From a virus (lineage: Duplodnaviria; Heunggongvirae; Uroviricota; Caudoviricetes), in IMG/VR virus record IMGVR_UViG_2728369593_000002: 28,060 nt of DNA, one strand, 5' to 3'. The first letter of the stretch is position 1. Each line of letters starts with the position of its first letter. Below the pieces are notes generated by a model. The model ran no database searches and was not told the DNA's origin. It saw only the letters and a program-made list of their open reading frames with translations. Made by a program: the position numbers and the translations under genes. This document shows positions 3,904 to 25,360 of the stretch, one piece after another.

Positions 3904-4193
3904 TGGTGGATTTACGTAAAGCGGCAAAAGGTCAGATGTGTACAGTCAGAATTCCTGGCTACTGCAATCACAATCCCGAAACGTCCGTGCTGGCGCATTA
4001 CAGGCTGGCGGGGACGTGTGGAACAGCGACAAAACCACACGATATGCAGGCAGCGATTGCCTGCAGCTCATGCCACGATTTAATCGACGGGCGGGTAAAA
4101 ACCAGCGATTACACCAAAGAAGAATTGCGCCTGATGCATGCAGAAGGTGTTTTTCGCACACAAGAAATCTGGAGAAAGGAAGGTTATTTATGA
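3903..4193 (+). CDS. ybcO: YbcO-like (DUF1364) putative nuclease, Cys-rich
   Basis: 96 aa with VRIPGYCNHNPETSVLAH...CGTATKP...IACSSCHD, matching the YbcO family of DLP12-type prophages. Start overlaps the upstream stop. Confidence 0.75.
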   Translation: MVDLRKAAKGQMCTVRIPGYCNHNPETSVLAHYRLAGTCGTATKPHDMQAAIACSSCHDLIDGRVKTSDYTKEELRLMHAEGVFRTQEIWRKEGYL

Positions 4194-4744
4194 TTTACCC
4201 AACAAATACAGGCAAAAGCGGGGAACACCTTCGTCTCACCACGCTGGAAAGTGTCTGGATTCAGGGAAAACTGCGCATGTGGGGGCGCTGGTCGTATATT
4301 GGCGGCGGTAAGACGGGAAATATGTTCAACCAGTTGCTGACCTCTAAAAAGCTGACAAAAACGGCAATTAACGAGGCGCTCCGGAGGATGAAAAAAGCAG
4401 GTCTGGACAAACCTGAGCTTGAGGCTTTTTTGCGGGATATGATCAACGGCAAGCAAAAAAGCTGGCTGGTGCATTGTACTGATGCAGAGGCGTTATGCAT
4501 TGATCGGGTGATTAGTGAAGTGCTGGCAGAACACCCAGGATTGATTTGTATCCTCCGGCAACGATATGAAGGGAGGGGGATGACTAAGCGCAAAATGGCT
4601 GAATTGCTGAATGATTCACACCCTGAGTGGTGTTACGCCACGTGCCGTAATCGCATAGATGCGTGGTTGAAAATGGCAGAGTTTATGCTCTATCTGCCGA
4701 TGCGTGATGCATTCTCTTCCGGGGATCTAAAAACCGTCTGTTGA
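4190..4744 (+). CDS. late-gene antiterminator Q-like protein
   Basis: 184 aa from ATG 4190 (ATGA overlap with ybcO stop). A pR'-like promoter and short terminator follow immediately, upstream of the lysis cassette. The listed 3938 start is rejected because it overlaps ybcO. Confidence 0.6.
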   Translation: MIYPTNTGKSGEHLRLTTLESVWIQGKLRMWGRWSYIGGGKTGNMFNQLLTSKKLTKTAINEALRRMKKAGLDKPELEAFLRDMINGKQKSWLVHCTDAEALCIDRVISEVLAEHPGLICILRQRYEGRGMTKRKMAELLNDSHPEWCYATCRNRIDAWLKMAEFMLYLPMRDAFSSGDLKTVC

Positions 4745-4770
4745 CTCAATCTGTTATCCGGGGCTATATT
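4741..4770 (+). promoter_or_regulatory. pR'-like late promoter: -35 TTGACT (4741-4746), 18-bp spacer, -10 TATATT (4765-4770)
   Basis: Sigma-70 consensus-like hexamers abutting the Q stop codon, the position of pR'/qut in lambdoid phages. Confidence 0.5.
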
Positions 4771-4831
4771 CCTCACGCGTCAGCAAAATCTGGCGTCGGG
4801 ATTGGCGTCCTGGATAGAGACCGCGACAGAT

Positions 4832-4857
4832 ACACGCCGCGAGCGTGTTTTTTATTG
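4832..4857 (+). terminator. tR'-like intrinsic terminator about 60 nt downstream of the pR'-like promoter
   Basis: ACACGC-CGCGA-GCGTGT hairpin followed by TTTTTTATT. Confidence 0.5.
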
Positions 4858-5014
4858 TCGTATGCACGCGCACATCTGAATTATGGTGGGCTGTGTGGGG
4901 GCGGAGAGATCCGCGCCGGTCGGTTTCCCGGTTACGCCAACCCTGCACAGTTCACCACCAGATGATTGGCGTCGTCGGTGGTGAGTTATTAAGAAACCAC
5001 CAGAGGGCGTCATT

Positions 5015-5527
5015 ATGACAACTCAAATTTCTGTTGAAACTCTCTCCCCGATCACCCATAACCAGATTCCTGTTATTACCACCGAACTTTTGGCGCAGCT
5101 TTACGGCACTGAGCCGGTGCGCATTCGCCAGAATCATCATGAGAACAAAGTACGCTTCGTTGAAGGGAAACACTTTTTCAAAGTTGTTGGTAATGACCTT
5201 AAAGAATTGCGGGTAGCTTTAAACTACTCACAAAATTTGCGGGTTACTTTAAGTAACTCACAAAATTTGCAACCATCTTTAAGAGGGTTACAAATTTCCC
5301 CGAAAGCCCGCTCCCTCATCCTCTGGACAGAACGCGGAGCAGCCCGTCATGCCAAAATGCTCGAAACCGATCAGGCGTGGGATGTGTTCGAAAAAGCTGG
5401 AAGACTGCTATTTCAGACAAAAAGGATCCGTCAGCGCCAGCTTCATGCCAGAAAAAGTTTACGACACGCGAGTTCTCTGTTATCAGCGAGGCGGTGTCAC
5501 TGTTTCCACAATTCAGTTGCGGGATGA
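5015..5527 (+). CDS. ORF6N/KilA-N-like DNA-binding domain protein (antirepressor-like moron); the C-terminus probably continues in ORF 5349..5630 after a frame break
   Basis: N-terminal region (ITTELLAQLYGTEPVRIRQNHHENKVRFVEGKHFFKV ... LILWTERGAARHAKMLE) resembles the ORF6N domain. The last 35 residues of this frame are Arg-rich and look out of frame. Confidence 0.55.
   Translation: MTTQISVETLSPITHNQIPVITTELLAQLYGTEPVRIRQNHHENKVRFVEGKHFFKVVGNDLKELRVALNYSQNLRVTLSNSQNLQPSLRGLQISPKARSLILWTERGAARHAKMLETDQAWDVFEKAGRLLFQTKRIRQRQLHARKSLRHASSLLSARRCHCFHNSVAG
5205..5294 (+). repeat. three tandem, progressively degenerate copies of a 30-bp unit inside the ORF6N gene
   Basis: aattgcgggtagctttaaactactcacaaa / atttgcgggttactttaagtaactcacaaa / atttgcaaccatctttaagagggttacaaa; encodes LRVALNYSQN-LRVTLSNSQN-LQPSLRGLQI. 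Confidence 0.55.
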
Positions 5528-5725
5528 TGATATTGTTATTTCCCTTGAGTCATGGCTGGAACTGGCGAGAGCCAATGGTTGGTTTGTTGTTCGCAGAGAT
5601 AAACTGGTGGAAAGGCTGATGCAGCTTTAAAAAAGTTCTTGCAATTTTAGCCATAAACTGCTTCAATTTCGGTATGCTTCGCAAAGCTGTATCGCGAGGC
5701 GAACCAAGCGCATGCACTTTACCAG

Positions 5726-5756
5726 AACCCGCCATTGAGCGGGTTTTGTTGTTTCT
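5726..5756 (+). terminator. intrinsic terminator downstream of the ORF6N gene
   Basis: AACCCGC-CATTGA-GCGGGTT hairpin followed by TTTTGTTGTTT. Confidence 0.5.
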
Positions 5757-5978
5757 GACGGATAGAAAAAATGAAATAGCTAAATAAAAAGAATGCATTG
5801 GATGCCATATATTGGCAACGTGACGACAGCGTTAATCTGGTCGGGCTCCCATGGCGACGTAGTGAGGGAGAGGAAGCGTAAAGCATCACTGAGTTACGGT
5901 TGGCACCCGGTTTAACGCGTAAGTGGCCTGATAAAGAGATAGTGCGCCGCGGCACTCACAGCGGCAACGATTAACTGA

Positions 5979-6003
5979 CCTCGGCATTTGCCGAGGTTTT
6001 TTA
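5979..6003 (+). terminator. intrinsic terminator upstream of the lysis cassette
   Basis: CCTCGGC-ATTT-GCCGAGG hairpin followed by a T6 run. Confidence 0.55.
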
Positions 6004-6102
6004 TTTAAGGCCGCAGACAGGCCCATTTAGTGCAACGCCTTTCCCCGTTTCCGCTCCTGGAATATTCGGGGATTTTTTATTCCCTCAATTTGCACCCGCG
6101 AT

Positions 6103-6462
6103 ATGTGCGAGGTGAGAGATGATGAAATGCCTCATAACCCAAATACCTGGCCGGACTGGCTGGAGTTGTTTCAGAGCTGGTGGCGTGGAGACACTCCGCT
6201 GGGCGCAGTGATTATGTCGATCGTTATGGCTGGTTTGCGCATCGCCTATTTTGGCGGTGGTGGGGGCTGGAAACGAAAAACGCTTGAGATTTTGCTCTGT
6301 GGTGCCCTGACGCTGACCTTTGCATCCGCGCTTGAGTATGTCGGATGGCCTAAATCACTTTCTGTTGCCATTGGTGGTGGGGTGGGGCTGATTGGTGTTG
6401 ATGCTATTCGTGGTGCGGCAATGAGGGTCATCGGTAACAAGTTCGGTGCCCATAAGGAGTAA
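6103..6462 (+). CDS. class I holin, lambda S-like; possible dual start (Met at 6103 and Met at 6127)
   Basis: Three predicted transmembrane segments, Gly-rich loops and a charged C-terminal tail; GAGGTGA Shine-Dalgarno precedes the second Met at 6127. Lies immediately upstream of the endolysin. Confidence 0.8.
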   Translation: MCEVRDDEMPHNPNTWPDWLELFQSWWRGDTPLGAVIMSIVMAGLRIAYFGGGGGWKRKTLEILLCGALTLTFASALEYVGWPKSLSVAIGGGVGLIGVDAIRGAAMRVIGNKFGAHKE

Positions 6463-7647: not shown

Positions 7648-7704
7648 CATTACAGAAGCTCCTTTGATAAGGGGCTTCGATAATGTCACTAAGAGGAATA
7701 ATTC

Positions 7705-8455
7705 ATGGCAAAACCGGACTGGGAGGCCATCGAATCGGCATACCGGGCCGGAGTCCTTAGCCTCCGTGATATAGGCGAGAAATACGGCGTTACAGAAGGG
7801 GGCTATCAGGAAGAGGGCCAAAAAGCTTGGTTGGGTACGCAGTGGCGGTACGCAGGTTTGCAAAAATGGTACGCAAAAAAGAAAAGTGCGTACCAGCAGA
7901 AAGCCTGCCATTACTGGCCTTACACAAAAAGGTACGCAACCAAAAACAGAACCTACACTGGATACGAAACCGATACGCGGAATGCGTACCGATCCCCCGA
8001 CTAACCCATTCCAACCCGGTAACCAGCAGGCATTAAAACACGGTGGTTATGCCCGTCGCCTTCTGCTCAAAGATGAGGTGATAGAGGACGCTAAAGCGTT
8101 GACGCTCGAGGACGAATTATTTCGCCTTCGTGCTAACAACCTTGTCGCTGCAGAGAATATTGGTCGGTGGCTGGTGTCGCTGGAAGATGCTAATGGGGAC
8201 CAGGAAAGGAAGATGCTGATGGAAAATATCAGCGCCGCCGAGAAAGCAATGATGCGCAATACAGTTCGTATTGAGTCCATCGTTGGCACGCTTGCGACGG
8301 TAGGAAAAATATTTGCTGATACAGCCTACCGCAAGGCCGCCACTGATAAGGTGTCTCTGGAGGCTGATCGTCTTCGCCGTGATGCAGGTATTGATGATGG
8401 CAATGGAGAGCGTGACCTCAATGACTTCTACTCTGACATCCAAACCGACGCTTAA
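7705..8455 (+). pseudogene. terminase small subunit, split by a +1 frame break at a G5 run (7798-7802); may be a real frameshift or a homopolymer sequencing error
   Basis: N-terminal HTH MAKPDWEAIESAYRAGVLSLRDIGEKYGVTEG is in one frame. The expected continuation AIRKRAKKLGWVR ... NPFQPGNQQALKHGGYA is in the next frame and ends at 8455. Removing one G restores a single ORF of about 249 aa. Confidence 0.65.
7834..7990. repeat. array of the 8-mer GGTACGCA (4 direct copies, 2 inverted copies TGCGTACC) within the small terminase gene; candidate pac/terminase recognition site
   Basis: Direct copies at 7834, 7847, 7868, 7931; inverted copies at 7887 and 7983; degenerate GATACGAAA/GATACGCGG nearby. 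Confidence 0.55.
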
Positions 8456-22973: not shown

Positions 22974-23282
22974 TTGGCCCTGCCGTTAACAGTTTCGGCG
23001 GCAACGCAGTGCGGACCATTCCGCTTTGATGCTGGTAATGATGGCCTCATGCACATCAATGGTCAAAAGCCAGAAACACAAAAAATGACCTTTTTGAAAC
23101 AAAAAGACGATTTCGATAATGTCATGATGCAATGGATGTTACCTGATCCTAATACTGGACGTTGGTTAGGTATGGACTACATCAAACGAAACAAAAAAGC
23201 GATCCTCAACGTTGAAGTTATCCGCAAAAATATGGACGACCCTCGGGAGTTCTGGACGTATGATTGCCGGAAGGTGAAGTGA
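22974..23282 (+). CDS. small secreted/periplasmic protein (moron); likely true start GTG 22948, which requires a one-base frame correction in a T6 run
   Basis: Listed ORF begins at TTG with a truncated signal peptide. GTG 22948 (GGAG Shine-Dalgarno upstream) encodes VKKVFF, and with T7 instead of T6 (22960-22965) reads MKKVFFWLFLALPLTVSAA|TQCG, a complete signal peptide. Confidence 0.4.
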   Translation: MALPLTVSAATQCGPFRFDAGNDGLMHINGQKPETQKMTFLKQKDDFDNVMMQWMLPDPNTGRWLGMDYIKRNKKAILNVEVIRKNMDDPREFWTYDCRKVK

Positions 23283-23362: not shown

Positions 23363-23776
23363 ATGAAAACCATTACTTATACACAAATGCGTTCGGATTT
23401 ATCTGCCACGCTGGAATTGTTACGCTCAGGTGAGAGTGTAACGGTAACGCAACGGGGGAAGCCTGATACTGTTATCAGTGCAAAAACCGTTGATAAGGTG
23501 GTGTCTGGAAAAGAAATTAAGCCACAAAACAAAACGATAGATGCGCATCTTGCACAGTTAATTTCATCTAATTTATCCCCACAGGTAACGGAGGGAGTCA
23601 TGAAGTTTACTAAGCAATTAGATGTCCTTCTGCAGTCTGATGAGGCGCGCCAGGCAATGATGAAGGCTGCCAATGCTGCACTTGCCCTGCAGGGCGTATC
23701 AGAGTCATTTATTAAAGCTTTGCAACATACTCAGACTAAGCATGCGGAAATTATAAAAAAACTGGAAGATAAATAA
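23363..23776 (+). CDS. Phd/YefM-family antitoxin with long C-terminal extension (137 aa)
   Basis: N-terminus MKTITYTQMRSDLSATLELLRSGESVTVTQRGKPDTVI matches the Phd/YefM fold signature. GAGGG Shine-Dalgarno upstream; stop overlaps the Doc start (TAATG). Confidence 0.7.
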   Translation: MKTITYTQMRSDLSATLELLRSGESVTVTQRGKPDTVISAKTVDKVVSGKEIKPQNKTIDAHLAQLISSNLSPQVTEGVMKFTKQLDVLLQSDEARQAMMKAANAALALQGVSESFIKALQHTQTKHAEIIKKLEDK

Positions 23777-24183
23777 TGGCTGAGATTACGTTTCTTTCGG
23801 TTGATGAGGTTATTGCGATTCAGAAAAGTACGCTGCCGAACAGCGGGCAGCCTGATATAGGTAAGCTCGAAGGTGCCCTGAACAGGGTGCATAATCTGCA
23901 CATATATGAAGGCTGTGAGGATTTATTTAAATTTGCCGCTATGTATATGGTAGCAATAGCGAAGTCTCACGCTTTTAACGATGCCAACAAGCGAACAGCT
24001 TTCCAGGCCACCAGCATTTTCTTGCTAATGAATGGCTATGAACTTAACACCTCCATGGAGTTGGTGAAGTTGACTATCTTTGCTGCTACTGGAGAAGCTG
24101 ATTGTGATAATACTGCACTGGCACTAAAACTCTTGTCAGATTATAAGAATGAGCTGCTGGCAGACACGATTACTGGATACTGA
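23776..24183 (+). CDS. doc: Doc (death-on-curing) Fic-family toxin
   Basis: 135 aa with the Doc active-site motif HAFNDANKRTA; translationally coupled to the upstream Phd-like gene. Confidence 0.85.
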   Translation: MAEITFLSVDEVIAIQKSTLPNSGQPDIGKLEGALNRVHNLHIYEGCEDLFKFAAMYMVAIAKSHAFNDANKRTAFQATSIFLLMNGYELNTSMELVKLTIFAATGEADCDNTALALKLLSDYKNELLADTITGY

Positions 24184-24215
24184 TAGCGTATCAACGGTAA
24201 ACGTAAAATGTGTAT

Positions 24216-24254: not shown

Positions 24255-25007
24255 ATGCCAGTTTCACTTTCCTCTCAACTCGGCAGTAAAGAACAGGCCG
24301 ATGTAAGACTTGCTGGTTCTGTCATGTCGGTGCTGCGTGTTTCTATGCCCGGTATCGTCCAGTCATTTGATCAGGACACGGTAACGGTAGTTGTTCAACC
24401 AGCGATTAAAGGTTATGAGCCGGACTCAAATGGAATCAACCAGTCGACGACATTACCCCTGCTGGTGGATGTGCCAGTGGTATTTCCGCGCGGCGGAGGC
24501 TGTACGTTGACTTTTCCGGTAAAAGCCGGTGATGAATGTCTGGTGATTTTTTCCGATCGTTGTATTGATTTCTGGTGGCAGAACGGCGGGATACAGGAGC
24601 CGGTCGATGACAGAATGCATGATTTATCGGATGCATTTTGTATTGTCGGTCCCCAGTCGCAGGCGAGGAAGATTAGCGGTATTAATACCAGTGCCACACA
24701 GTTGCGTAGTGACGACGGCAGCACCTATTTTGAGCTTAATCCTGATACCAGGAAAATTAAAATTGTCGCTCCGGGTGGTCTTGATGTGGTTGCCCCTCTG
24801 GCTGATTTTTCTGAGAAAGTAACCATTCATGGCCTGTTAACCTGGATGGGGGGCATGGTGGGGTCTGTGGTTTCTGGTGTGGCTTCAAAAATCACTGGTG
24901 CTGTTGAGTTCTTGGGGAGCGTGAAGGCTAACGGCAAGCCAATCGATGATACGCACACTCATGGTGGTGTTCAGCGCGGTGGAAGCAGTACCGACGGGGT
25001 AAACTGA
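24255..25007 (+). CDS. baseplate spike/assembly protein (gpV-like)
   Basis: ATG 24255 with GGAG Shine-Dalgarno; the listed 24210 start lies inside the terminator. Gly-rich C-terminus with a THTHGG motif. Confidence 0.6.
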   Translation: MPVSLSSQLGSKEQADVRLAGSVMSVLRVSMPGIVQSFDQDTVTVVVQPAIKGYEPDSNGINQSTTLPLLVDVPVVFPRGGGCTLTFPVKAGDECLVIFSDRCIDFWWQNGGIQEPVDDRMHDLSDAFCIVGPQSQARKISGINTSATQLRSDDGSTYFELNPDTRKIKIVAPGGLDVVAPLADFSEKVTIHGLLTWMGGMVGSVVSGVASKITGAVEFLGSVKANGKPIDDTHTHGGVQRGGSSTDGVN

Positions 25008-25360
25008 TGCGATACAGACGTGAAGACGCCGATGGCGATTACACCTTTGGCAGCGGTGATGACACCTGGCTGATTAACTCACCGGAGGCCGTGGCGCAGG
25101 CGGTAAAAACGCGATTCGAATTGTGGTATGGGCAATGGTTTCTCGACACCACCGAGGGGACTCCGTGGATCCAGTCCGTACTCGGTAAGCAGAAGCCTGA
25201 AACCTACAACCTGGCGATCCGTAAGCGCATCCTCGAAACGCGGGGCGTTAAATCAATCCTCTCTTTCAATACGACGGTGGATACCACGACCCGACGTGTC
25301 ATGTTTTCCGCTGAAATCGACACTCTTTATGGAATAACGACTGTTACATCGGAGGCGTAA
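25007..25360 (+). CDS. baseplate wedge protein (gpW/gp25-like)
   Basis: 117 aa between spike and J-like genes; start overlaps upstream stop. Confidence 0.5.
   Translation: MRYRREDADGDYTFGSGDDTWLINSPEAVAQAVKTRFELWYGQWFLDTTEGTPWIQSVLGKQKPETYNLAIRKRILETRGVKSILSFNTTVDTTTRRVMFSAEIDTLYGITTVTSEA

Follow-up and report, generated by a model that had tools for sequence, protein, structure and literature searches.

By its sequence relationships, the gene at positions 5015–5630 is the antirepressor of a regulatory cassette controlled by the IsrK and C4 RNAs, in E. coli the counterpart of a prophage switch that is already known. The window is the whole stretch of DNA that was analysed, the 28,060-bp WGS contig AKYH01000082.1. 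Judged by the alignments and RNA family matches given below, its segment 4741–5630 is a self-contained prophage regulatory cassette of known kind and not free-standing cargo, and the gene is correctly filed as the output of the sRNA-controlled induction switch known from Gifsy-1, a prophage of Salmonella Typhimurium. We consider it highly probable that the locus is explained jointly by this known IsrK/C4 antirepressor cassette and by a frame break that most likely arose in sequencing or assembly. The coordinates of all features are collected in Table 1.

Table 1. Features of the antirepressor cassette and of the leader downstream of it, as positions in the window
Feature	Position	Strand	Basis or remark
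Q-type antiterminator gene, DUF1133 family	4190..4744	+	Pfam DUF1133, 358 bits; weak Phage_antitermQ, 27.5 bits
Cassette promoter, PisrK counterpart (TTGACT, 18 nt, TATATT)	4741..4770	+	sigma-70-like scan, 10/12 matches
IsrK sRNA with its own intrinsic terminator	4777..4853	+	Rfam RF01394, 73.3 bits (gathering score 50)
C4-type antisense RNA	4879..4962	+	Rfam RF01695, 66.7 bits (gathering score 45)
Upstream ORF, 33 aa	4883..4984	+	ATG corresponds to the start of Gifsy-1 orf45
b2-like site, GATTGGCGTC	4964..4973	+	just downstream of C4
Antirepressor gene, ORF6N domain and small C-terminal domain	5015..5630	+	Pfam, PHROG, Gifsy-1 homology
Three tandem 30-bp units	5207-5236, 5237-5266, 5267-5296	+	TRF; inside the ORF6N domain
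A5 run, A4 in intact homologues; first frame break	5391..5395	+	alignments with DEC5A and Z1323CEC0003
A5 run, one base over intact homologues; second extra base	5419..5423	+	alignments with DEC5A and Z1323CEC0003
AAAAAGTTT, AAAAGTT in intact genes; third and fourth extra bases	5452..5460	+	A run 5452-5456, T run 5458-5460
Candidate late promoter PR′ (TTGCAA 5639-5644, 17 nt, TTCAAT 5662-5667)	5639..5678	+	inferred from position
First leader terminator-like hairpin, then TTGTTGTTTCT	5723..5748	+	terminator scan
Conserved structured RNA element	5804..5925	+	covariation test; covariance model
P0 of the RNA element, variable hairpin	5804-5816		
Pb of the RNA element	5818-5821 with 5829-5832		
PK1 of the RNA element	5824-5827 with 5840-5843		
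P3 of the RNA element	5846-5850 with 5866-5870		
PK2 of the RNA element	5861-5865 with 5886-5890		
P5 of the RNA element	5876-5877 with 5883-5884		
P4 of the RNA element	5897-5899 with 5907-5909		
Second strong intrinsic terminator, GACCTCGGCATTTGCCGAGGTT and T run	5977..5998	+	terminator scan; upstream of the holin gene

Organization of the regulatory cassette

The antirepressor gene lies between a Q gene of the DUF1133 family and a lambda-type holin gene (6103–6462), which agrees with the placement between Q and the lysis cassette made in the first-pass annotation. No tRNA genes were found in this slot. Directly 5′ of the gene, three Rfam families match above their gathering thresholds: RF01394 (IsrK), RF01695 (C4) and RF03163 (c4-a1b1), the last with 48.2 bits against a gathering score of 46.7 at 4764–4816. 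The stop codon of Q overlaps the −35 hexamer of the cassette promoter, which is the sole sigma-70-like site flagged by the consensus scan across 4600–6200, and in the alignment the homology to the promoter regions of Gifsy-1 and VT2-Sakai begins exactly at this hexamer. From the hexamer to the antirepressor ATG, the window (4741–5025) aligns end to end with the isrK-orf45 leader of Gifsy-1, in which PisrK has been shown to drive the transcription of anrP (PMC4825925).

The terminator of IsrK is formed by the hairpin at 4832–4848, which is followed by a U run. This hairpin had been taken for a tR′-like terminator 5′ of the gene, and that assignment is replaced by the terminator of the sRNA. Six terminator-like hairpins with T runs were found in the scanned region, where 1.7 were expected, and they include those at 4832–4848, 5723–5748 and 5977–5998.

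The first two hairpins of IsrK are the a1/b1 target sites of C4, and the C4-type RNA occupies the same position as STnc1160, the C4-like RNA of Gifsy-1. Its ACGCCAA (4934–4940), as read from the sequence, is complementary to the UUGGCGU of both b1 and the b2-like site. In addition, the GATTGGCGTC of the b2-like site repeats the 10 nt of the b1 loop sequence (4800–4809) without a mismatch and is the longest exact word common to the IsrK region and the downstream leader. The ATG at 4883 lies outside the b2-like site, and no a2 site was identified in the cassette. Whole-RNA duplex energies of C4 with IsrK and with the downstream leader were not better than those of shuffled sequences (equalled in 44/300 and 87/300 shuffles, respectively), and because the shuffled controls scored comparably, duplex folding was set aside in favour of the repeated word and the complementarity. 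The predicted pairing of C4 with its targets rests on the 7-nt complementarity, the 10-nt repeated word and the Rfam matches.

The end of the upstream ORF (4984) lies 31 nt short of the antirepressor ATG at 5015, with no ATGA overlap. The frame that would overlap the antirepressor start (4845–5018) is without a conserved ATG, and a 2-nt indel shifts the frame of the upstream ORF in the window, in DEC5A and in the Stx phages relative to Gifsy-1.

The mechanism proposed for the cassette follows from homology with Gifsy-1 (Hershko-Shalev et al. 2016, PMC4825925) and with P1 immI. Most transcripts from the cassette promoter would end at the IsrK terminator and yield the 77-nt sRNA, and the read-through transcripts would include the C4 RNA and an antirepressor mRNA that is closed to translation. 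Whether the upstream ORF, and after it the antirepressor, is translated would depend on how IsrK (a1/b1), the C4 loops and the b2-like site near this ORF pair with one another. The antirepressor would inactivate the prophage repressor and lead to induction, including the expression of Q. Since the upstream ORF of the window has a 31 nt gap instead of the ATGA overlap, the translational coupling of Gifsy-1 may not operate identically here.

The antirepressor gene and its product

In the contig, the gene is split into ORFs 5015–5527 (170 aa) and 5349–5630. Annotation sees only an "ORF6N domain-containing protein". The HMM search bears out the ORF6N domain that had been proposed: ORF 5015–5527 matches Pfam ORF6N (PF10543) over aa 12–115 with 69.6 bits, against a cutoff of 27.8. 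The match has ~18 extra residues compared with the 86-position profile, roughly two repeat units. The protein corrected for the frame break matches 'anti-repressor' families of PHROG along its whole length, the profile phrog_2379 with an E value of 4.6e-93 (residues 1–203 on profile positions 1–187 of 187), and ORF 5349–5630 matches positions 105–187 of the same profile.

We take STM2616 of Gifsy-1 to be AnrP; it is homologous along its full length, at 52% identity over 99% of the query (E 5e-52). The homologues are uninterrupted proteins of 185–203 aa, and none was found to end at the equivalent of 5527 with a separate gene downstream. The 52%-identical homologue AnrP and the family names point to antirepressor activity of the 203-aa protein; for AnrP, repressor inactivation leading to induction is known (PMC4825925).

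A search with the C-terminal 56 aa against 1.84 billion representative proteins returned only 10 clusters at E ≤ 1e-3, and on this evidence the C-terminal domain of the antirepressor is small and narrowly distributed. A PDB sequence search with the antirepressor gave no match at E ≤ 1, and NCBIfam holds no family matching the antirepressor, STM2616 or Q. The AlphaFold2 model of the 203-aa protein was unusable (mean pLDDT 36; shallow alignment of 25 sequences, all ≥89% identical).

The ORF6N domain contains a real tandem repeat, whose units encode, in order, LRVALNYSQN, LRVTLSNSQN and LQPSLRGLQI. It had been described as a triplication at 5205–5294, but it consists of two good copies, identical at 25/30 positions, and a degenerate third (18/30 and 18/30), together spanning 5207–5296. 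The two good copies (5207–5266) are the only site in the window where adjacent 30-mers reach 25/30. The comparison of repeat copy number that had been suggested gave 1 to 4 units among the relatives, and the Gifsy-1 protein has none. On a weaker reading, the 10-aa repeat of the ORF6N domain, whose number of units varies from none to four, may tune antirepressor specificity. The repeat-number polymorphism represents a natural allelic series for probing the role of this insertion in the ORF6N domain.

Interruption of the reading frame

The earlier proposal that the C-terminus continues in ORF 5349–5630 was correct. The break itself and the A5 run at 5419–5423 to which it had been assigned are also present, but four extra bases are involved instead of one, and the product has 203 aa and not about 205. 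Judged against a 99.2%-identical intact gene, the break consists of four separate one-base excesses within 70 bp, and the removal of all four bases gives exactly the 203-aa WP_000211421.1, whose intact sequence is present on 389 contigs. Compared with DEC5A, the CDS has zero substitutions and four insertions. A single-base deletion in the run at 5419–5423 also fuses both ORFs, but its product is chimeric, with ~22 residues for which no homologue gives a match. Among about 15 billion proteins, the 170-aa product occurs a single time, on this contig.

Five further insertions specific to the window lengthen existing runs, at 7798, 14625, 14838, 17975 and 18981. Four of these stand out against two independent relatives; the one at 7798 was comparable with a single relative. 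At least two split open frames of structural genes, the DUF3277 gene included, and a single-base repair reopens each of those frames. Four errors in 70 bp are far denser than in the rest of the contig, and an artefact requires locally poor reads at this place.

From these comparisons, an artefact of sequencing or assembly in the draft contig is the likeliest cause of the frame break; the real gene would in that case code for the intact 203-aa protein. Alternatively, the four insertions may be real and the gene a genuine pseudogene in a decaying, domesticated prophage, in which the loss of the C-terminal domain would lock the prophage in by blocking IsrK-triggered induction. The contig contains other interrupted genes of this prophage, an IS transposase gene is located at the left end of the window, and defective lambdoid prophages are frequent in E. 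coli. However, 9/9 window-specific insertions extend an existing run by exactly one base, which is the signature of homopolymer over-calling and not of decay. Decay would also bring substitutions, which are absent from the CDS in the comparison with DEC5A, and among thousands of contigs with this gene the allele occurs only once. We consider a pseudogene improbable, and the apparent one should not be counted as prophage decay before the reads are checked.

The breaks fall in A5 runs, which are potentially slippery, and programmed frameshifting or transcriptional slippage at these runs might yield both an ORF6N-only and a full-length protein. Four separate compensating events would be needed to restore the protein in this way, though, and all homologues are single-frame with A4 runs, the longer runs being conserved in no relative. 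The intact A4 homologues on 389 contigs effectively refute slippage, and we give it a negligible probability; an artefact in the draft contig is the reading that we keep.

Probable late promoter and leader downstream of the gene

By comparison with related loci, the segment 5639–5678 is a probable late promoter PR′. It was missed by the consensus scan because its −10 hexamer is without the A at position 2. A −10-like TATGCT follows at 5673–5678, perhaps a sigma-dependent pause. Five relatives that have no cassette show the same promoter arrangement (TTGATT or TTGCAA, 17 nt, TTCAAT or TTGAAT) right behind the stop codon of Q, and in these the sequence from about 5652 onward directly follows that stop codon. 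The antirepressor gene is probably upstream of the late promoter and not within the late operon.

Both leader hairpins are conserved: the one at 5723–5748 is kept with compensatory changes in three loci, all without the antirepressor gene, and the one at 5977–5998 is kept in the same manner in plasmid copies. They had been recognized as two further terminators bracketing the gene, and they do exist, but as part of a separate leader that directly follows Q in cassette-less relatives.

In the model drawn from the first-pass annotation, the gene is a moron, cargo of the late operon, standing independently between tR′ and the lysis genes and inactivated or phase-switched by one slip in the A5 run at 5419–5423. 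In agreement with this, the gene is physically between Q and the holin gene, a promoter of its own is present, and one A removed at 5419–5423 opens a continuous frame. Its predicted function, however, is phage regulation and not host benefit, and it is part of an IsrK/C4 cassette that also occurs in the nin region of Stx phages, with the upstream terminator belonging to IsrK. The intact homologues differ at four runs, and the one-base repair leaves the unmatched residues described above. Besides, the likely PR′ is downstream of the gene, and a cassette placed between Q and this promoter is not cargo of the late operon. We find an independent moron very improbable and retain the gene as a regulatory antirepressor in an RNA-controlled cassette.

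A conserved RNA element in the leader

A conserved structured RNA element is located between the two leader hairpins. The covariance model matches it with 123 bits at 5818–5925, ~108 nt; helices Pb, PK1, P3, P4 and P5 show compensatory changes, and the element includes two hairpin-loop pseudoknots. The helices GCGUUAA/UUAACGC and GGUCGGG/CCCGGUU, considered for the same region, gave way to Pb and PK1 on the strength of the compensatory changes. The TATATT at 5808–5813 was rejected as a −10 hexamer, as it is the loop of a covarying hairpin.

The element occurs as one copy per locus in 84 related loci; it is present in 64 viral contigs and in about a dozen genera, nearly all of them Enterobacterales. 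It always heads long operons, which follow either Q and the likely PR′, or cI-type repressor genes, or a plasmid gene of the NusG family. Its position after cI-type repressor genes is the PL position, where nutL or putL would lie. Rfam has no family for the segment 5804–5925, and a literature search with the contig accession and sequence strings of the element returned nothing. The 24B_1 RNA of phage Phi24B belongs to another locus and has no bearing on this one. It is possible, if doubtful, that the ~108-nt element at 5818–5925 represents an undescribed family of structured leader RNAs, which would be the only possibly new item at this locus.

By analogy, the element may act in cis on the elongating RNA polymerase as a processive antiterminator, or it may recruit a NusG/RfaH-like factor. 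The put RNA of HK022 is a cis-acting processive antiterminator of about 70 nt with two stems (PMC9378689). Like put, the window element is found in leaders of long phage operons, a resemblance in position only, and it likewise has a short GACG/GUCG-type helix near the 5′ end and a terminator after it (PMC9378689). In contrast to put, it has ~108 nt with pseudoknots and a single copy per locus. No homology between the two was detected: the covariance model gave no match better than E = 9 in HK022 20000–40751. If functional, the element offers a new handle on the passage of late and early-left phage operons through terminators.

Comparison with known systems

The isrK-orf45-anrP locus of Gifsy-1 and the window present a common order of Q, promoter, IsrK with its terminator, a C4-like RNA overlapping a short ORF, and antirepressor. 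The slot between Q and the lysis genes is also the same, with STM2616 following Q (STM2617); the antirepressors are homologous over their full length, in both domains, as are the leaders. In Gifsy-1, IsrK has been reported as an activator and not only as a repressor target (PMC4825925). The two loci differ in the family of Q, which is DUF1133 here and phage 82-like in Gifsy-1. The upstream ORF has 33 aa and no overlap in the window, whereas orf45 of Gifsy-1 has 45 aa (reconstructed) and an ATGA overlap, and the window protein, at 52% identity, carries two extra 10-aa repeat units.

In the immI region of P1 and P7 (c4, icd, ant), a short ORF precedes ant. A C4 antisense RNA, flanked by a1/b1 and b2-like sites, is processed there from the antirepressor transcript (Citron & Schuster 1990; Biere et al. 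1992). Both Rfam features of this system, C4 (RF01695) and c4-a1b1 (RF03163), are present in the window cassette. The likeness is drawn from these RNA features; the window antirepressor is of the ORF6N type. Unlike in immI, the a1/b1 half of the window cassette ends in its own terminator and would, by homology with Gifsy-1, form a separate sRNA (IsrK).

The leader of orf34-ant, in the nin region of VT2-Sakai, is 97% identical to that of the window. In the Stx phages, identity is 98–99% over the first 470 bp of the stretch searched, which take in 65 bp upstream of the gene and its first ~405 bp, with all three repeat units. Their cassette precedes Q and lies between ninE and roi, and the gene is annotated as ant. 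Its C-terminus is P22_AR_C (PF10548), whereas the window protein has the small domain, a domain swap immediately behind the conserved LEDCYF motif. Judged by these alignments, the cassette is portable: VT2-Sakai and other Stx phages have in their nin region a copy that is near-identical in the leader and in the first part of the gene. The switch occurs widely among E. coli prophages and also among Stx phages, in which spontaneous induction drives toxin release.

Gene content and the interrupted reading frame

The gene between Q and the lysis genes was correctly spotted by the first-pass annotation but mis-filed: it belongs to the sRNA-controlled antirepressor cassettes, a class already described. 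Both overlapping ORFs that had been described exist (Table), and the proposed ORF6N domain was recovered in ORF 5015..5527 by Pfam (69.6 bits, cutoff 27.8, aa 12–115). The upstream neighbours are a Q-type gene and a YbcO/DUF1364 gene; downstream, a holin gene is accompanied by a lysozyme-like ORF and, in the spanin position, a further gene.

Table. Features of the antirepressor region and its flanks.
Feature	Position	Strand	Size	Remarks
Q-type gene	4190-4744			upstream; DUF1133 and weak Phage_antitermQ match
Sigma-70-like promoter	4741-4770			TTGACT, 18 nt, TATATT; just 5′ of IsrK; sole such site from scan of region
a1/b1 targets of C4	4764-4816			Rfam 48.2 bits, above gathering score
isrK RNA	4777-4853			Rfam 73.3 bits, above gathering score
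C4 antisense RNA	4879-4962			Rfam 66.7 bits, above gathering score
ORF6N ORF	5015..5527		170 aa	ORF call
Overlapping ORF, C-terminal part	5349..5630		93 aa	ORF call
Extra base 1	5391-5395			A4 to A5
Extra base 2	5419-5423			A4 to A5
Extra base 3	5452-5456			A4 to A5
Extra base 4	5458-5460			T2 to T3
Probable PR′	5639-5678	+		TTGCAA, 17 nt, TTCAAT, then -10-like TATGCT
Conserved RNA element	5804-5925	+	~108 nt plus variable hairpin just upstream	5818-5925 almost invariant
Lambda-type holin gene	6103-6462			downstream

Escherichia coli O55:H7 DEC5A carries a 99.2%-identical stretch with an uninterrupted 612-nt gene (WP_000211421.1, 203 aa, annotated merely as "ORF6N domain-containing protein"), which runs past the equivalent of 5527, where a separate downstream gene had been considered. 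Alignment with it revealed, in place of the single frame break supposed earlier, four extra bases, every one extending a homopolymer. There are no substitutions within the CDS, and deletion of the four bases recovers WP_000211421.1 exactly. The one-base repair formerly suggested at the second A5 run does open a frame, but with about 22 residues (KAGRLLFQT...) that are absent from every homologue.

In a set of about 15 billion proteins, the 170-aa product was seen a single time, on the 28,060-bp NCBI contig that is the window itself (AKYH01000082.1, GCA_001605745.1); the intact 203-aa sequence is present on 389 contigs. Five more single-base insertions set the window apart from close relatives (7798, 14625, 14838, 17975 and 18981), each duplicating the neighbouring base; four differ from both DEC5A and Z1323CEC0003, while 7798 is comparable only with the latter. 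Two or more of them interrupt reading frames, which become continuous again once a single base is corrected: the DUF3277 gene (17975), where 146 codons became 40 + 133, and likewise a 250-codon frame at 7702-8455 (7798). Together with a one-base deletion in a CC run at 23200, these insertions point to homopolymer errors contig-wide. The four extra bases could be genuine and the gene a private pseudogene, which we consider improbable, since decay would not look like +1 run extensions without substitutions. The near-exclusive occurrence of such extensions fits homopolymer over-calling, and the frame break is most likely a sequencing artefact.

Repeat and C-terminal domain

The 30-bp triplication described earlier is a real repeat, though only two units (5207-5236 and 5237-5266) are well conserved, with 25/30 identical positions, a level reached by adjacent 30-mers across the whole window only at 5207-5266; the third (5267-5296) is degenerate, 18/30 identical to either of the others. 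The repeat is located within the ORF6N domain, N-terminal to the conserved RSLILWTERGAARHAKML block. The proposed copy-number comparison showed variation among close relatives, from no units in STM2616 of Gifsy-1 to one in phage Lys19259Vzw, two in phage pPE4 (193 aa), three in the window, DEC5A and VT2-Sakai (203 aa) and four in Stx2a_WGPS4. In a survey of 135 protein records, mostly the 120 best homologues, three length classes predominated; of the 117 records that matched the flanking motifs, 77 had 193 aa, 33 had 203 aa and 6 had 185 aa. These classes are compatible with slipped-strand or unequal exchange on the 30-bp repeat, and the polymorphism is genuine but modest.

For the C-terminal 56 aa, searches of Pfam, NCBIfam and PDB gave no match, and just ten related clusters were found among 1.84 billion representatives (E ≤ 1e-3). 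For the whole 203-aa protein, AlphaFold2 on a shallow alignment returned pLDDT 36, no usable model. PHROG profiles named anti-repressor cover the corrected 203-aa protein full length (phrog_2379, E 4.6e-93), and antirepressor activity of the E. coli protein is putative.

Regulatory region and probable late promoter

Within C4, ACGCCAA (4934-4940) is complementary to UUGGCGU, which sits in an exact 10-nt word, GATTGGCGTC, with one copy at 4800-4809, within IsrK's second hairpin, and the other directly 3′ of C4 (4964-4973). A terminator scan of 4600-6200 returned 6 sites against 1.7 expected, with terminator-like hairpins bearing T runs at 4832-4848, 5723-5748 and 5977-5998. The first, previously called tR′-like, is IsrK's own terminator; the other two are present as described but are not specific to the antirepressor, as the stretch that holds them follows Q in relatives.

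The stretch between roughly 5652 and 6005 has its equivalent directly 3′ of the Q stop codon in five relatives (L063, L023, L022, L046 and L032), whose Q is DUF1133-type by sequence, and after a different Q gene in another prophage (L013). In those five, the junction presents promoter-like TTGATT/TTGCAA, 17 nt, TTCAAT/TTGAAT, then a -10-like TATGCT and a hairpin equivalent to 5723-5748. Since relatives without the cassette have this arrangement directly after Q, 5639-5667 is the probable late promoter PR′; from their position, 5723-5748 and 5977-5998 would be its leader terminators, and the IsrK-antirepressor cassette appears to have been inserted between Q and PR′. At the cassette junction, the last codons of Q differ, and its stop codon overlaps the cassette -35 hexamer. 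Gene content is swapped at 5758-6108, from antirepressor to holin: in DEC5A and Z1323CEC0003 this segment is occupied by other hypothetical genes (about 1 kb), and of 5426 complete E. coli genomes only 36 have the window's version.

Structured RNA element

Between the two leader terminators lies an element whose segment 5818-5925 is nearly unchanged across unrelated contexts. A degenerate 35-nt pattern derived from it was found in 64 IMG/VR contigs, and its 23-nt core at 14 loci. These loci represent about a dozen GTDB species, and the element is known from about a dozen genera, with Enterobacterales making up nearly all in both counts. Its covariance model found exactly one copy per locus at 84 loci and no match in the HK022 early region, and no similarity to HK022 put was detectable; comparison of the window and ten diverse loci with Rfam 15 gave no family that covers it.

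Covariation was evaluated on 32 distinct sequences with a hand-built structure including two pseudoknots. Pairing was observed in 93% of cells, against 33-46% with partners slid, and the covariation score was 0.169 against 0.107 ± 0.007 in shuffles (0/500 as high). Compensatory changes occur at eight pairs, such as C-G to A-U in PK1, the loop-to-downstream helix, and C-G to U-A in P3. Indels of 1–3 nt and an inserted hairpin of 15–16 nt make it unlikely that the element is coding. In one subgroup (viral and genomic loci L025, L043, L044, L058 and L088), the short P5 hairpin is swapped for one 15–16 nt longer (GGCGCATAGCGC), P5 being a variable-length stem, as in structured RNAs.

The element is located after Q or after the antirepressor, 5′ of the holin gene; 320-590 nt downstream of HTH + Peptidase_S24 repressor genes, on the same strand (8 of 10 sampled loci), with an N-like gene following in some; directly 3′ of a NusG-family gene in a Serratia plasmid; and in non-mobilizable plasmids of 47–49 kb. 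It always heads long operons, after Q, cI-type repressor or NusG-family genes, and such contexts are the positions of processive antitermination signals. As a candidate leader or antitermination RNA acting in cis, it deserves a separate look; the interest of the antirepressor finding itself is low.

Other features of the window

A sok antitoxin RNA match (Rfam, 114 bits) and a Hok/Gef ORF are separated by about 1.1 kb (1319-1485 and 2589-2744), and between them a minus-strand transposase gene with rve-integrase domains ends near 2517; the hok/sok locus may have been split or duplicated by IS insertion. DEC5A has a Phd/YefM-Doc toxin-antitoxin pair within the baseplate/tail gene cluster (24318-25138 of its locus, L003), replaced by a different gene in Z1323CEC0003. 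The window probably has the pair too, as about 23364-24184 aligns across it.

Comparison with Stx phages and Gifsy-1

VT2-Sakai and numerous other Stx phages have a leader 97% identical to that of the window. A search with the stretch starting 65 bp upstream of the gene gave 98–99% identity over its first 470 bp, which include about 405 bp of the gene. There the gene is annotated ant, and a P22_AR_C domain replaces the C-terminus right after the conserved LEDCYF motif. These phages carry the cassette upstream of Q, within the nin region; it is therefore a portable IsrK/C4 regulatory module, not late-operon cargo or the moron of the first-pass annotation.

The architecture of the window is that of the Salmonella prophage Gifsy-1, where the order is antQ, isrK, orf45, anrP, and the operon is driven by PisrK. 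In Gifsy-1, the majority of transcripts terminate as short IsrK, and those that read through give a translationally inactive mRNA; acting in trans, IsrK makes the orf45 ribosome-binding site accessible, anrP translation is coupled to that of orf45, and AnrP boosts antQ expression and induces the prophage (PMC4825925). STM2616, directly after Q (STM2617) in the Gifsy-1 record, was taken as AnrP from its position and the description in PMC4825925. It shares 52% identity with the corrected protein over 99% of its length (E 5e-52), the leader aligns with window 4741-5025, from the -35 hexamer through the start codon, and the start ATG of orf45 is conserved (4883). Unlike in Gifsy-1, a 2-nt indel leaves a 33-aa upstream ORF that ends 31 nt before the antirepressor ATG, and therefore no ATGA overlap, which is also missing in DEC5A and the Stx phages. 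By analogy, apart from the coupling step, which may work differently, the E. coli cassette most likely works as shown for Gifsy-1.
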